From a virus (taxonomy: Duplodnaviria > Caudoviricetes), in IMG/VR virus record IMGVR_UViG_3300042301_003333, positions 1 to 55,966 of that record: a stretch of 55,966 nt of DNA, one strand, 5' to 3'. Below, one piece after another: positions 1 through 16,491 of this stretch. The notes under the pieces were generated by a model that saw only the letters and a program-made list of their open reading frames with translations, was not told the DNA's origin and searched no databases. The position numbers and the translations under genes are program-made. Numbering within the stretch: position 1 is the first letter of the stretch; every line of letters begins with the position of its first letter.

Positions 1-408
1 GGCCCACTTGCAACTCACCGCTCCGCTAATCCCCCCCCCCTGTTCCGTCGATTCGCAGACCGCCCGTAGCGCCTGCTCCAGAAGTGGCGGGAGTGCTTTT
101 CCGCGCTTTGCGGCGCGGCGCAGAATCCCCGCGCATGCCCTCGGCGAGAGAAAGTATTTCGCCGGCACATTCTCCTCCAAGATCTGCGACAAGGAACACT
201 CTTCGGCGACGCTGAGCCACTCGGTGGTAGCGGCTGTCCAGCACTCGCCACGCGACGTCACGCGCCCCGACGTCGACCAGCGTTTGGAGGACGACAGCAA
301 AGTCTCGGCCACCGTTGCTGCTGAAAAGTCCGGGGACGTTCTCGGCGATGGCGATGTCTGGCTTGCCGTCGCGCGCCCGAAGTTCGCAAATAACTCTAAC
401 TGCTTCAT
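1..408 (-). CDS. Overlapping +1-frame methyltransferase beta-type polypeptide (M.EcoHK31I-beta-like), open at the window edge
   Basis: ATG at 408 gives MKQLELFANFGR...GECWTAATTEWLSVAEECSLSQILEENVPAKYFLSPRACAGILRRAAKRGKALPPLLEQALRAV...GGGISGAVSCKWA with no stop before base 1; absent from the ORF track. Confidence 0.75.
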   Translation of the reverse strand, partial: MKQLELFANFGRATASQTSPSPRTSPDFSAATVAETLLSSSKRWSTSGRVTSRGECWTAATTEWLSVAEECSLSQILEENVPAKYFLSPRACAGILRRAAKRGKALPPLLEQALRAVCESTEQGGGISGAVSCKWA

Positions 409-697
409 GGAAGAGTCCGCTCCGCGCGCCATCGAGGCCCGCACGTTTGCCGGCCACCGAGAGGTCTTGGCATGGAAAGCCGTAGGTGATGACGTCGACC
501 GGCGCGAGGTTGTGCGCTCCGACCTTCGTCACGTCGTCGTGCAGATCGGCCTCGGGGAATCGCAGTCGGAGGACGGCCTGCGCCTTGTCGTCAATCTCAA
601 CGGCCCACGCCGTCTCAAAGCCCGCCCGACGGAAGCCGAGGTCAAACCCTCCGACGCCAGCGAACAGCGAGCCGATGCGAAGCTTGCGGTCGGTCAC
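26..697 (-). CDS. C5 cytosine DNA methyltransferase, alpha frame (motifs I-VIII), ending just after a G10 tract
   Basis: SLFAGVGG (I), GFPCQDLS (IV), ENVPG (VI), AQRRRRVF (VIII); GTG start at 697 overlaps the upstream stop (GTGA); TAG at 28-26 follows the G10 run. Confidence 0.9.
   Translation of the reverse strand: MTDRKLRIGSLFAGVGGFDLGFRRAGFETAWAVEIDDKAQAVLRLRFPEADLHDDVTKVGAHNLAPVDVITYGFPCQDLSVAGKRAGLDGARSGLFHEAVRVICELRARDGKPDIAIAENVPGLFSSNGGRDFAVVLQTLVDVGARDVAWRVLDSRYHRVAQRRRRVFLVADLGGECAGEILSLAEGMRGDSAPRRKARKSTPATSGAGATGGLRIDGTGGGD
31..40 (-). repeat. G10 homopolymer (C10 on + strand) inside the methyltransferase
   Basis: Directly read: cccccccccc at 31-40. Confidence 0.95.
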
Positions 698-3501: not shown

Positions 3502-4524
3502 ATGCCGAACCGAATCATCAAGGACGCGATTCTCGTCAGCGCGAACATCGACCAGCTTACGGCCGACGAGGAGCGGTTTTTCTTCCGTCTCCTCCTTATC
3601 TCGGACGACTACGGCCGGTTCGACGCCCGCCCGCCGGTCATCCGGGGGCGTGCCTACCCGCTCAAGCCCGAAGTGACCGATCAGCACGTCCTGTCGTGGA
3701 TTGCCAAGCTGGTCGAGGTCGACATCCTGCACGCCTACGAGGTCAAGGGCGCGAGGTTCATCGGTTTCTCGAACTGGCACACCTATCAGAACGTCCGCGC
3801 CGGCAAGAGCAAGTACCCGAGTCCCGAGGGTGCGCAACTCTTGCACTCGGAGGACATTGTCGGCAACGGCACGCCCCTGCTTGCGCCTGCGATCATCTGC
3901 AAGCAGATGCAATCAGATGATCCGTCTTCTCGTATCTCGTCTCTCGCTTCTCGCTTCTCGTCTCTCGGTTCTCGTGTCTCGCCTCTCGTCTCTTCTCCCG
4001 AACCTTCGCCGGCTGACGCCGGCGCGGAAGGCGACCTCGGACCGGCACCCCTCCTGCTGGCAGAGACGACCGACCCGCAGCCCGCAACCCCCGCCCGCCC
4101 GACGCCCGCCGTCGACGCCACCGGACAGGCAAGCCTCATCCCGGCCACCGGCAAGCCCGACCGCCGCCGCAAGCCCGCAGGCGAGCCTGAGGACGAACCG
4201 ACCGCCACGGCTGATCTGGACCGCTGGGTGGCCCGCTACGTCGAGCTCAAGCGCCCGCCGTTCCCGCCCGCACTGACGAAGGAGGACCGGATCTTCTTCT
4301 TCCAGCAGCGCAAGGCGCGTGGCATCGACGAGCTCGTCTGGGTGCTCGAAGTCCTGCACGGCGACTCGTACAGCGCCCACCTCCCCATCCGCGCCCTCGT
4401 CGCGCCCGAGGCCGCCCAGAAGGCCGCCGGCCTCAAGGCGAAGGTCGTCCAGTCGGCTGGCCCGCAACCCTCCAAGCACATCACCGGCCGCGACCTCGAC
4501 GGCCTCTGGGCCGGCGAAGCCTAG
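3502..4524 (+). CDS. Phage replication initiator / replisome organiser
   Basis: MPNRIIK...FFRLLLISDDYGRFDARP N-terminus, low-complexity linker, directly upstream of a DnaC-like ATPase. Confidence 0.85.
   Translation: MPNRIIKDAILVSANIDQLTADEERFFFRLLLISDDYGRFDARPPVIRGRAYPLKPEVTDQHVLSWIAKLVEVDILHAYEVKGARFIGFSNWHTYQNVRAGKSKYPSPEGAQLLHSEDIVGNGTPLLAPAIICKQMQSDDPSSRISSLASRFSSLGSRVSPLVSSPEPSPADAGAEGDLGPAPLLLAETTDPQPATPARPTPAVDATGQASLIPATGKPDRRRKPAGEPEDEPTATADLDRWVARYVELKRPPFPPALTKEDRIFFFQQRKARGIDELVWVLEVLHGDSYSAHLPIRALVAPEAAQKAAGLKAKVVQSAGPQPSKHITGRDLDGLWAGEA
3928..3990 (+). repeat. Nine tandem TCTCGNN heptamers inside the initiator gene (candidate ori region)
   Basis: tctcgta tctcgtc tctcgct tctcgct tctcgtc tctcggt tctcgtg tctcgcc tctcgtc; 63 bp. 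Confidence 0.9.
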
Positions 4525-14874: not shown

Positions 14875-15314
14875 TCATCTGCATCGACTTCGACTCGACC
14901 CTTGTCGACGAGTGGGGCCGGAAGTTCTCGGACGTCACGACGCCGCTCAAGCTCATGGGCGGCGCTCGCAAGGCGCTACAGGCGATGAAGGCCGCAGGCC
15001 ACGTCGTGCTCGTCTCGTCGGCGCGAGCAAACCGCGCCCTCCGCATCGACCCCGAACTCGACCCGCTCGTCCGAGCCGGCGTCGTGAAGCTCGACCGCAA
15101 GGCGTGGGAGGCCGAGCAGCCGCTCCACGAGGCGCGCTACCAGCAGATGGTGCAGTTCTGCGCGACGCAGCTCAAAGGGCTCGTCGACGCGGTGGACGAC
15201 GGCGGGCAGGGGAAGCCCGTGGCGGACCTCTACATCGACGACCGGGCGCTTCGGTTCGGTGGCGGCGTGGATGGTCACAACTGGTTCGACATCGCCCGCC
15301 AGTTCGGGGCGTGA
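14871..15314 (+). CDS. HAD-superfamily phosphatase-like protein
   Basis: ICIDFDSTL (motif I), GKPVADLYIDDRA (motifs III/IV). Confidence 0.8.
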   Translation: MIICIDFDSTLVDEWGRKFSDVTTPLKLMGGARKALQAMKAAGHVVLVSSARANRALRIDPELDPLVRAGVVKLDRKAWEAEQPLHEARYQQMVQFCATQLKGLVDAVDDGGQGKPVADLYIDDRALRFGGGVDGHNWFDIARQFGA

Positions 15315-15333
15315 CACGGGAAGACGGGAGACG

Positions 15334-16491
15334 ATGCACCAGGGGACATTTGACTTGCGGGAGGGCGACGCGCTCGACGTGCTGCGCTCGCTGCCCGATG
15401 CGTCCGTCAACCTCGTCGTGACGGACCCGCCGTACTTCAAGGTGAAGGCCGAATGGTGGGACCGGCAGTGGGAGAAGCCCGCCGGATTCCTCGCGTGGAT
15501 GGGGCAGCTCGTCGACGAGTGGCGGCGCGTGCTCAAGCCGAACGGCTCTCTCTACGTCTTCGCCTCGCCGCAAATGGCTGCCCGCGTCGAGGGCGTCGTC
15601 GCCGAGCGCATGAAGGTGCTCAACAGCATCGTGTGGGCAAAGCCGCGCTTCTCGACGAAGGCCGAGATGTTCGTCAAGGGCGACCAGCGCGCCTTCTTCC
15701 CTGCCACCGAGCGCATCGTCTTCGCGGAGCAGTTCGGCACCGACAACATGGCGCGAGGCGAGGCAGGCTACGCCGCCAAGTGCAACGAACTGCGGTCGCT
15801 CGTCTTTGAGCCGCTGCGCGCTTACCTAGACGGCGAGCGCGAGAGGGCGGAGCTGTCGCGAGTGGAAATCGCTCGCGCATGGGGGGGGCTTCGCAAGGAG
15901 AAAAAGCGTAGCGACATGACATCGCACTGGTTTGGTCAGTCACAATGGCAGTTGCCAAGCCGAGCAAGCTACGAGTGGCTCCGTGCGCTGTTTAACGAGG
16001 CGCAGCCGGGCGGAGACTTGCTCGCTCGCGAGTACGAAGGGTTGCGGCGCGAGTACGAAGGGTTGCGGCGCGAGTACGAAGGGTTGCGGCGCGAGTACGA
16101 AGGGTTGCGGCGTCCGTTCGAGGTGTCCGACGAAGTGCCGTACACCGACGTCTGGACGTTCCCGACGGTGCCGCACCGCCCCGGCAAGCATCCATGCGAG
16201 AAGCCGGCGGACCTCATTCGGCACATCGTGCGGGCCTCGTCGCGCCCCGGCGACGTCGTGCTCGACTCATTTGCCGGCTCGGGCGTCGTCGGGCGCATCG
16301 CCATCGAGGAAGGCCGGTCGTTCATCGGCTCCGAGATCGACCCGCACTGGGTCGCCGTAGCACGTCGCAGCATCGACGCCGCACAACCCGTCGCCGCGAC
16401 AACGGGCGGGGCTAGGGACTCGACGAGAAAGACGCGAACGGGGACCGCCTCGCCGTCGCAAGGCTGGTTGTTCGCACGGGAGACGGCATGA
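15334..16491 (+). CDS. N6-adenine/N4-cytosine DNA methyltransferase (beta class)
   Basis: VTDPPY, HPCEKP, VLDSFAGSG; ATG 15334 with GGGAG RBS. Confidence 0.92.
   Translation: MHQGTFDLREGDALDVLRSLPDASVNLVVTDPPYFKVKAEWWDRQWEKPAGFLAWMGQLVDEWRRVLKPNGSLYVFASPQMAARVEGVVAERMKVLNSIVWAKPRFSTKAEMFVKGDQRAFFPATERIVFAEQFGTDNMARGEAGYAAKCNELRSLVFEPLRAYLDGERERAELSRVEIARAWGGLRKEKKRSDMTSHWFGQSQWQLPSRASYEWLRALFNEAQPGGDLLAREYEGLRREYEGLRREYEGLRREYEGLRRPFEVSDEVPYTDVWTFPTVPHRPGKHPCEKPADLIRHIVRASSRPGDVVLDSFAGSGVVGRIAIEEGRSFIGSEIDPHWVAVARRSIDAAQPVAATTGGARDSTRKTRTGTASPSQGWLFARETA
15881..15888 (+). repeat. G8 homopolymer inside the methyltransferase, currently in frame
   Basis: TGG GGG GGG CTT. Confidence 0.9.
16027..16110 (+). 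repeat. Four perfect 21-bp tandem repeats encoding REYEGLR
   Basis: CGCGAGTACGAAGGGTTGCGG x4. Confidence 0.95.

Follow-up and report, generated by a model that had tools for sequence, protein, structure and literature searches.

C5 DNA methyltransferases are textbook single-chain enzymes. Two natural two-chain examples, M.EcoHK31I and M.AquI, are described in the portions of two papers available to us (PMC2836561, PMC3404938), and what follows on both draws on those portions. In M.EcoHK31I the beta chain lies wholly in another frame of the alpha gene and carries motif IX, which the alpha chain is without; both chains are required, and the N-terminus of the small chain can be largely removed with reduced activity (PMC2836561, PMC3404938). 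M.AquI is split within the variable region, one chain carrying the remaining variable region together with motifs IX-X, and split C5 methyltransferases, natural and artificial, are active (PMC3404938). Homopolymer tracts are given as phase-variable examples for the type III mod genes in the accessible part of a further paper (PMC3711429). Here we examined a gene at the start of the viral record IMGVR_UViG_3300042301_003333 (55,966 nucleotides, analysed at full length and called the window), in which a reading frame for the catalytic half of a C5 methyltransferase, termed alpha, stops just after a run of ten G residues (G10), and a second frame, +1 relative to alpha, reads on through the run. 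We give a probability of about 0.7 to the reading that the window encodes a two-chain C5 methyltransferase and that a module in the +1 frame is a conserved overlapping gene of this enzyme family.

Two frames in one gene

The alpha frame, on the minus strand, opens at GTG 697 and runs for 223 codons to a TAG at 28-26. Its translation matches Pfam PF00145 with an E value of 4.8e-46 and 158.1 bits (cut-off 22), residues 7-171 aligning to positions 2-160 of the 324 in the profile, and matches TIGR00675 with 151.6 bits (cut-off 100.65) over positions 3-159 of 329. Both curated cut-offs are exceeded, and the product therefore belongs to the C5 DNA methyltransferases. FAGVGG is encoded at 664-647, PCQ at 475-467, ENV at 343-335 and QRRRRVFLV at the site listed in Table 1; we take these to be motifs I (FxGxG), IV (PCQ), VI (ENV) and VIII (QxRxR) in the naming used for C5 methyltransferases. 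GFPCQD and ENVPG are also present in the alpha protein (P0001). The +1 frame, read from ATG 408, gives MKQLELF...CSLSQILEENVPAKYFLSPRACAGILRRAAKRGK...QGGGISGAVSCKWA, or in full MKQLELF...CSLSQILEENVPAKYFLSPRACAGILRRAAKRGKALPPLLEQALRAVCESTEQGGGISGAVSCKWA, and it contains a stretch of conserved sequence, hereafter the module, whose first codons overlap the VFLV strand of alpha motif VIII.

A first-pass annotation made from the sequence had read alpha as stopping just after G10 and a second protein as running from ATG 408 through the tract in the +1 frame, and these statements hold on the minus strand. Inspection also bears out its arithmetic for a tract with one G fewer, in which alpha would gain ISGAVSCKWA and the +1 reading would end at QGGGLAER followed by a stop. 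The AT-rich codons to which it pointed near 385-408 are real: the patch at 412-383 has a G+C content of 37% in a contig of 68%, and the G+C content of third codon positions (GC3) in frame 0, that of alpha, is 0.40 there. Taken alone, GC3 indicates a change of frame after motif VIII and is ambiguous further on.

The tract lies inside the methyltransferase reading frame in the sequence GGG GGG GGG GAT TAG, with the stop one codon after it. It is the longest homopolymer in the window and one of only three runs of at least 7; G/C runs of at least 10 are expected 0.125 times per window in first-order Markov simulations. Near-identical DNA occurs in contigs from lake-water metagenome runs. The tract is also present, with 0 gaps, in a contig that a second assembler made from the probable source run; this contig extends 848 bases beyond position 1, its reads not being independent of those behind the record. 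In the second-best run the contig matches the window only from position 42 onward, and so misses the tract, and runs X3 and X4 stop short of it too. Scans that paired the two tract flanks across a gap of variable length gave 0 matches in metagenome contigs (twice) and, in viral contigs, only that of a close relative at locus L089, with no length variant. Across 88 related loci, G8-G10 runs lie near the junction in 5.

Other G/C runs may be recorded beside this one. At L057 (2671-2680) and L074 (2787-2796) a G10 run stands just downstream of the stop of the +1 open reading frame (ORF) in intact, full-length frame-0 genes, where a change of length would break frame 0 only. In the window, a G8 run at 15881-15888 on the plus strand lies within the ORF at 15259-16491, a second and unrelated DNA methyltransferase (phrog_67, E 1.6e-69), so that two of the three window homopolymers of at least 7 are G/C runs inside the two methyltransferase genes. 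No match to this second gene was found on the contig of L089, a record estimated to be 56% complete.

Table 1. Features at and beside the methyltransferase gene of the window (TRD, target-recognition domain)
Feature	Position	Strand	Remarks
Alpha chain, N-terminal half of a C5 DNA methyltransferase	26..697	-	Motifs I-VIII, then a 53-residue tail without sign of selection
+1-frame ORF, 5' part of a putative long second chain	1..528	-	Runs off the contig at position 1
Conserved +1 module CSLSQILEENVPAKYFLSPRACAGILRRAAKRGKALPPLLEQALRAVCES	49..198	-	About 50 residues, three helices predicted
G10 tract (C10 on the plus strand)	31..40	-	GGG in both frames; sets which frame enters the TRD/IX/X half
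Motif VIII, QRRRRVFLV, alpha frame	188..214	-	Site where both conserved readings overlap
AT-rich patch around ATG 408 (TTC CAT GAA GCA GTT AGA GTT ATT)	383..412	-	Possible internal initiation region for the +1 chain
Upstream small ORF, 81 residues	694..939	-	Its TGA overlaps the alpha GTG start (GTGA)

Conservation and selection in the +1 frame

The first-pass annotation had named loss of the +1 frame among homologs as an outcome that would overturn its view. The opposite is found, and decisively: hundreds of loci conserve the frame, and it is the one on which selection acts in the overlap. With the +1 protein as query, tblastn matched 201 phage records, and the last 66 residues alone matched 140. 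The match lies in the +1 frame inside an annotated methyltransferase gene in seven of the eight named phages examined, namely Caulobacter phage BL94, Mycobacterium phage Dove, P1 (dmt), Vibrio phage VpaJT_1, Streptococcus phage Javan102 (37% G+C), Enterobacter phage CobraSix and Pseudomonas phage D14E; in the eighth, Faecalibacterium phage Toutatis, the gene is fragmented. These seven keep the +1 frame open for 136-166 codons from stop to stop and carry module copies 58-67% identical to that of the window, and over the same stretch their frame 0 is a loosely conserved linker of the type VLFE.EG.RRD.AP.RE. Invariant module columns number 16 in alignment A1 and 17 in alignment A2. In a viral contig collection at least 576 of 580 pattern matches were confirmed, and a profile of the module run against 1.84 billion representative proteins gave 4,372 matches at E<=1e-3 and 3,429 at E<=1e-10, the best 150 of the 4,372 being the representatives used below.

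The relation between the frames was followed in two sets of 88 loci. Of the 87 loci in L001-L088 with an N-terminal match, 83 have the module in the +1 frame relative to the catalytic half; the motif IX/X part is in frame 0 again in 82/84, and the N-terminal part has the same frame as the C-terminal part in 77/83. In the second set, selected through the C-terminal half and close relatives, the module is +1 in all 84 loci with an N-terminal match. P0155 was considered as a single-chain form with the module in frame and turned out to be an ordinary full-length frame-0 enzyme. As a separate observation, four of the best 150 representatives (P0116, P0137, P0145 and P0048) have early motifs in frame (PCQ, and ENV in three of the four) and then switch to the +1 reading at differing points before motif VIII; these jumps are probably frameshift errors or decayed genes, and gp14 of phage Toutatis resembles them.

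Dual coding, as the first-pass annotation had proposed it, is supported by comparison among the loci and can be widened, since the +1 frame is the one under selection in the overlap. Over the module the mean pairwise identity (400 random pairs) is 65% in the +1 frame vs 39% in each of frame 0 and +2; upstream, over motifs VII-VIII, it is 44% in frame 0, 32% in +1 and 31% in +2. Among 279 differences, taken from 24 of 41 independent close pairs (those where a simple anchor was found), the synonymous fraction is 0.58 for the +1 frame, 0.20 for frame 0 and 0.19 for +2. The frame-0 synonymous difference rate, measured over the 41 pairs, is 0.359 before the +1 ORF opens; it falls to 0.205 inside that ORF more than 45 codons before the module (Wilcoxon test against the first bin, 1.4e-5), to 0.157 from 45 to 6 codons before the module (1.2e-5) and to 0.112 in the module itself (9.5e-8), and it stands at 0.353 after the +1 stop (0.10). 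Suppression thus sets in about 110 codons ahead of the module and lifts about 50 codons past the module start, and these are the limits of the +1 ORF. In 73/73 unique loci the +1 frame is free of stops over the 80 codons that precede the module, vs 18.4 expected from synonymous shuffles of frame 0, and the +2 control is open in 2 vs 3.2 expected. As far as sequence comparison can tell, an excess of open frames together with synonymous suppression is the standard sign of a same-strand overlapping gene.

The +1 frame is probably translated. Candidate starts in the window are ATG 408, ATG 432, GTG 444, GTG 312, TTG 300 and GTG 261; the start probably lies inside alpha, and ATG 408 is the leading candidate. 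The AT-rich patch around it has 43% G+C in L089, where the codons CAT GAA GCA GTT AGA GTT ATT are identical to those of the window, and frame-0 third positions differ between the two at only 2/46 sites from 408 to 270 vs 29/96 upstream. A more distant relative, P0147, has an annotated start 34 residues ahead of the module, as far from it as TTG 300 is in the window. The first +1 ATG of most loci stands 0-4 codons past the upstream stop, at a lineage-fixed 9, 18 or 23 codons before ENV, and in one large group it is preceded by a GAGG-type purine run made by a fixed frame-0 ATG AGG pair.

Gene layouts, relatives and the module

Three gene layouts were found. In layout A, the majority form of the first sample and 21/69 unique loci of the second, a full-length frame-0 enzyme contains the embedded +1 ORF. 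In layout B (47/69 unique loci of the second sample) alpha stops about 80 residues past motif VIII with the +1 ORF embedded in it, and the TRD and motifs IX-X are encoded by a separate gene that starts across the alpha stop with a median overlap of 22 bases. Layout B loci (L099-L176, e.g. L111 2088-3035) thus use three ORFs for a single enzyme. For this layout, readthrough or reassignment of a stop was considered and rejected, as 1-5 stops of all three kinds lie between the module ORF and the C-terminal gene. In layout C, which includes the window, L089, P0147 and L084, the module is fused to the TRD/IX/X half. Among the best 150 of the 4,372 representatives, 13 extend more than 100 residues past the module and 11 of these 13 have motif IX; the C-terminal part of PF00145 is present in each of the 12 long forms scanned, with positions of about 250-323 matched after the module and not within it.

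The closest fused relative, L089, comes from a different sample, on a viral contig of 74 kb, and is 89.4% identical to window positions 1-697 without gaps, with the same alpha stop. A comparison of homologs for G9 or G10 had been proposed in the first-pass annotation, and here it returns an identical G10 in spite of about 11% nucleotide divergence, so that the tract length is the same in 2/2 genomes of the lineage, both being assembled contigs. The TRD and motif X, which were to be sought beyond the window edge, are present in the +1 chain of L089: from the ATG that matches 408 it runs for 365 residues through the TRD, RRLIPRECSKLQGF and GNAVTVNV to a stop. Motifs IX and X of the window gene itself lie off the contig. 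On the 329-position dcm model (TIGR00675), alpha matches positions 3-159 and the long chain of L089 positions 277-328. The lineage thus has one chain with motifs I-VIII and another that holds the remainder of the variable region plus motifs IX-X, the second chain of the window being cut by the contig end. The two phages are syntenic in the first 12 kb, where shared segments are 82-89% identical, and differ in gene content; the phage of L089 is a related but distinct phage.

Counts of synonymous and nonsynonymous differences between the window and L089 follow the same division. They are 27/11 in frame 0 over the N-terminal part; from the module to the tract they are 14/6 in the +1 frame and 5/15 in frame 0, and the two differences within the 30 bases past the tract are both silent in the frame of the +1 chain (2/0). 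P0147 is 65% identical to the chain of L089 and is fused too, with a junction, ...ESTEQGGAVSCKWAKG, that is three codons shorter, and L084 has the fused layout at 49% G+C with no homopolymer. The TRD type that the lineage of the window carries on the +1 chain (…GAVS.KWAKGTGGPAGDE) occurs on frame 0 in P0155, with a similar one in L081. The identical G10 and intact 365-residue chain in L089, together with the fusion in P0147, speak for a stable split layout rather than a single error or a newly formed pseudogene.

We also examined what the module may be. In a model of the full +1 protein of L065 it forms three short helices, with mean predicted local distance difference test (pLDDT) scores of 91-97 over blocks of 10 residues; residues 51-102 of that model have low confidence and a short N-terminal helical pair has moderate confidence. 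A model of the long chain of L089 is poor overall (mean pLDDT 49), with module blocks at 71-92, and was not used for fold comparison. The models thus depict a small, basic three-helix unit. The window +1 protein (P0002), module included, matches no Pfam family above cut-off and no NCBIfam entry, the module alone and its profile have no match in a PDB sequence search, Foldseek with the module returned nothing at E<=1e-3, and the best hit of a wide structural search (Z 5.3 over 42 residues) is a generic helical hairpin. Its matches in the ESM Atlas are unnamed viral clusters only, part of it is covered by a single PHROG family with the label DNA methyltransferase, and public names for such proteins are either 'hypothetical protein' or methylase names.

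Where the module would sit in an ordinary enzyme is suggested by one Pfam alignment, of P0142, in which it is placed on PF00145 positions from 171, just past motif VIII, and it may tentatively be equated with the post-motif-VIII stretch of ordinary enzymes. A complex prediction for the layout-A enzyme of L065 (374 residues) with its own +1 peptide (66 residues) scored 0.56, vs 0.01 for the best of 3 controls, with contact agreement of at least 42% and partner pLDDT of at least 67. The mark used for this score is reached by 58/80 solved complexes and 2/110 mismatched pairs, and at scores of 0.60 or less by only 7/80 and by both mismatches; the prediction hints at docking of the peptide onto the enzyme. 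From this hint and the recurrent fusion to the C-terminal half, we think it likely that the module is a structural piece of the enzyme, acting in trans in layouts A and B and, in layout C, in cis together with the TRD.

Elsewhere, the window carries a tailed-phage gene set with terminase, portal, major head protein, sheath and baseplate hub. Both contig ends (55923-55966 and 1-30) cut ORFs, and the record is therefore a fragment of a larger phage genome. Continuation of the methyltransferase gene round the contig ends was considered and rejected, the far end holding a helicase gene and another cut ORF instead. The small ORF upstream of alpha has no PHROG family at E 1e-5, and a stop/start overlap such as its GTGA is a common arrangement for coupled translation. 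A tandem AGCCGT repeat (6-base unit, 36.7 copies, 84% matches) at 2044-2263 lies in the ORFs at 1426-2265 and 1728-2396 and encodes long dipeptide-type repeats in any frame (PATATATA, for example, when the minus strand is read). Short repeats with a period of 7/14/21 stand in tandem at 3923-3993, inside the plus-strand ORF at 3502-4524, a replication initiation gene (phrog_5810, E 8.3e-16); they could be an iteron-type origin inside the initiator gene.

Interpretation and comparison with known systems

Under our reading, alpha would supply catalytic motifs I-VIII and then a meaningless tail that ends just after G10. The second chain would start internally in alpha in the +1 frame, carry the module and continue through G10 to the TRD and motifs IX and X, and both chains would assemble into one enzyme, most likely as in the two-chain M.AquI. 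In most relatives the +1 ORF stops once the module is complete, and its product is probably a small protein of its own, about 130-190 residues long, that docks on the enzyme; in the window, one extra G relative to the common layout would keep the module joined to the C-terminal half. The +1 module is not peculiar to this phage: it forms the core of the overlapping gene found throughout this family of phage C5 methyltransferases, P1 dmt included.

Several explanations of the junction compete with a fixed split. The first-pass annotation had supposed a switch, in which slippage of the G tract in replication or transcription gives a full-length alpha and a free +1 protein at G9, a short alpha and a long +1 chain at G10, and the off state at G8 or G11. 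A G10 run is inherently prone to slip, as the homopolymer phase variation of the type III examples illustrates (PMC3711429, in the part available); it is the longest homopolymer of the window, with the G8 run in the second methyltransferase gene besides, similar runs recur near the junction in some relatives, and by frame arithmetic G9 and G10 both yield complete sets of parts. However, the tract is exactly G10 in both diverged genomes of the lineage, P0147 is fused across a different and shorter junction, L084 is fused without a tract, and the scans of metagenome and viral contigs returned no length variant. On present evidence a fixed split layout is more likely than a switch, which we consider unlikely. 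That the tract is really G9, in an ordinary full-length gene with an embedded +1 ORF, is suggested by the error-prone nature of homopolymers, by the predominance of the full-length layout in the first sample and by the same TRD type on frame 0 in P0155 and L081. An assembly or sequencing error is nevertheless very improbable, given that G10 recurs in the independently sampled and assembled L089, that the second assembler reproduces it, with the dependence of its reads noted above, that both post-tract differences are synonymous in the +1 frame, and that a deeper relative, P0147, is fused as well. A recent one-base insertion that broke a full-length gene and left a dead enzyme would account for the early end of alpha relative to full-length relatives, and damage-like frame jumps do occur in 4 of the best 150 of the 4,372 representatives; but purifying selection acts on both sides (27/11 in the N-terminal part, 14/6 in the +1 module), the +1 chain of L089 is intact over 365 codons, and split C5 methyltransferases are active in the account available (PMC3404938), so that we rate a pseudogene as highly unlikely.

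Programmed frameshifts are common in phages, and the module is always +1 and directly after motif VIII, as would be expected if a +1 slip of the ribosome after that motif made the module a C-terminal extension of the catalytic half. The first codons of the module (C-S-L-S), however, overlap the motif VIII strand, and a shift would sacrifice one or the other; the +1 frame is kept open and constrained for about 80-110 codons upstream, and an in-frame motif VIII precedes the module in 0 of the best 150 of the 4,372 representatives. The overlap with the motif VIII strand and the constraint far upstream make a ribosomal frameshift at the junction the least credible explanation. The +1 product may also be real without being an enzyme subunit, for example a small basic DNA-binding regulator or a protein of some unrelated phage function. 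The small, basic three-helix character of the module would suit such a role, no family or informative fold match was detected in the searches above, the complex prediction is weak, and the frame-0 enzyme of layout A already holds all ten motifs. Against it, the samples examined never show the module apart from the methyltransferase gene family, fusion of the module to the TRD/IX/X half recurs, the complex-test controls reached only 0.00-0.01, and the similarity of the module to the post-motif-VIII stretch of Dcm, weak as it is, is in the correct position. We regard a role outside the enzyme as unlikely.

A number of points weigh against the two-chain interpretation itself. The window ends 30 bases past the tract, and its C-terminal half is taken from L089; P0147 was seen as a protein, without its encoding DNA. 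The loci are mutually related, so that the counts are not of independent events, the codon usage of the shuffle test was drawn from the same ORFs, and upstream of the module the +1 amino acid sequence is no better kept between distant loci than the +2 control (32% vs 31%). Candidate +1 starts vary between clades, with some ORFs opening before motif IV, and the start codon is not fixed. Solved structures were reached only via motifs IX-X, the alignment of the module to E. coli Dcm 309-338 by hhalign (40% identity over 30 columns) has an E value of 0.016 and a probability of 2.8%, and the complex score falls in the range shared with mismatched pairs.

If the +1 gene is translated and needed, a large phage and prophage methyltransferase family (the 4,372 representative matches and at least 576 viral-contig stretches) has been mis-annotated. 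Recoding or codon optimisation would then destroy the hidden frame, and cloned genes could fail or misbehave. The gene would be among the clearest long same-strand overlapping genes kept across phages of very different hosts, those named in the sample including Escherichia, Vibrio, Pseudomonas, Caulobacter, Mycobacterium and Streptococcus, and the three layouts would form a natural series on the splitting and re-joining of enzymes that could be tested directly in P1 and E. coli. A bolder proposal, which we think distinctly doubtful, is that the small subunit is obligatory throughout this very large family, P1 Dmt included, and that G-tract slippage re-partitions it between free and tethered forms with an off state; supposed 'single-chain' enzymes would then really have two or three chains, and a population would show mixed methylation.

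A full-text literature search covering few subscription journals found no description of this overlap, nor do the available parts of a survey of frameshifts and of a review on overlapping genes in viruses mention it. The long G/C homopolymer within a methyltransferase reading frame recalls the type III mod genes, but those are on/off switches with tracts that vary between isolates, whereas here G10 is found in 2/2 genomes and both neighbouring lengths, G9 and G10, would encode all parts. E. coli Dcm belongs to the same superfamily (PF00145/TIGR00675), and the module aligns between its motifs VIII (274) and IX (400); Dcm, unlike the window gene, is a single chain read in a single frame, and its match to the module is weak. 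In P1, dmt (NC_005856, L003 2165-2656) contains the same +1 ORF, of 164 codons, which ends CLLSQVLE...YFLSSKACAGILRRGEKRRKSLPPLLQMALQSVAKA, the conserved module. P1 Dmt is annotated as one bifunctional methyltransferase of 754 residues, and the feature table of its record is without the inner ORF; it differs from the window gene in its full-length frame-0 layout and its fused adenine methyltransferase domain.

The two-chain enzymes remain the closest parallels. The comparison with M.EcoHK31I in the first-pass annotation is apt as an analogy, both having a second frame inside the alpha gene, but the arrangement differs. The likeness, judged by the available part of the published description, is greatest for layout A, with its embedded ORF, unconserved N-terminal part and conserved C-terminal core. 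Unlike in M.EcoHK31I, motif IX (RRLTP.ECERLQGF) lies in the frame-0 chain, as in BL94, P1 and others, or in the long chain, and the +1 module is another piece, directly after motif VIII; moreover, the +1 chain of the window extends past the alpha stop, full embedding being a property of layout A (77 intact frame-0 loci). In the division of motifs between chains, the window and L089, and likewise layout B, resemble M.AquI. The description of M.AquI mentions no such embedded ORF in the part available (PMC3404938). The chains of the window lineage differ from those of M.AquI in overlapping by more than 100 codons in two frames, and the conserved module found there is a separate ORF in most relatives.

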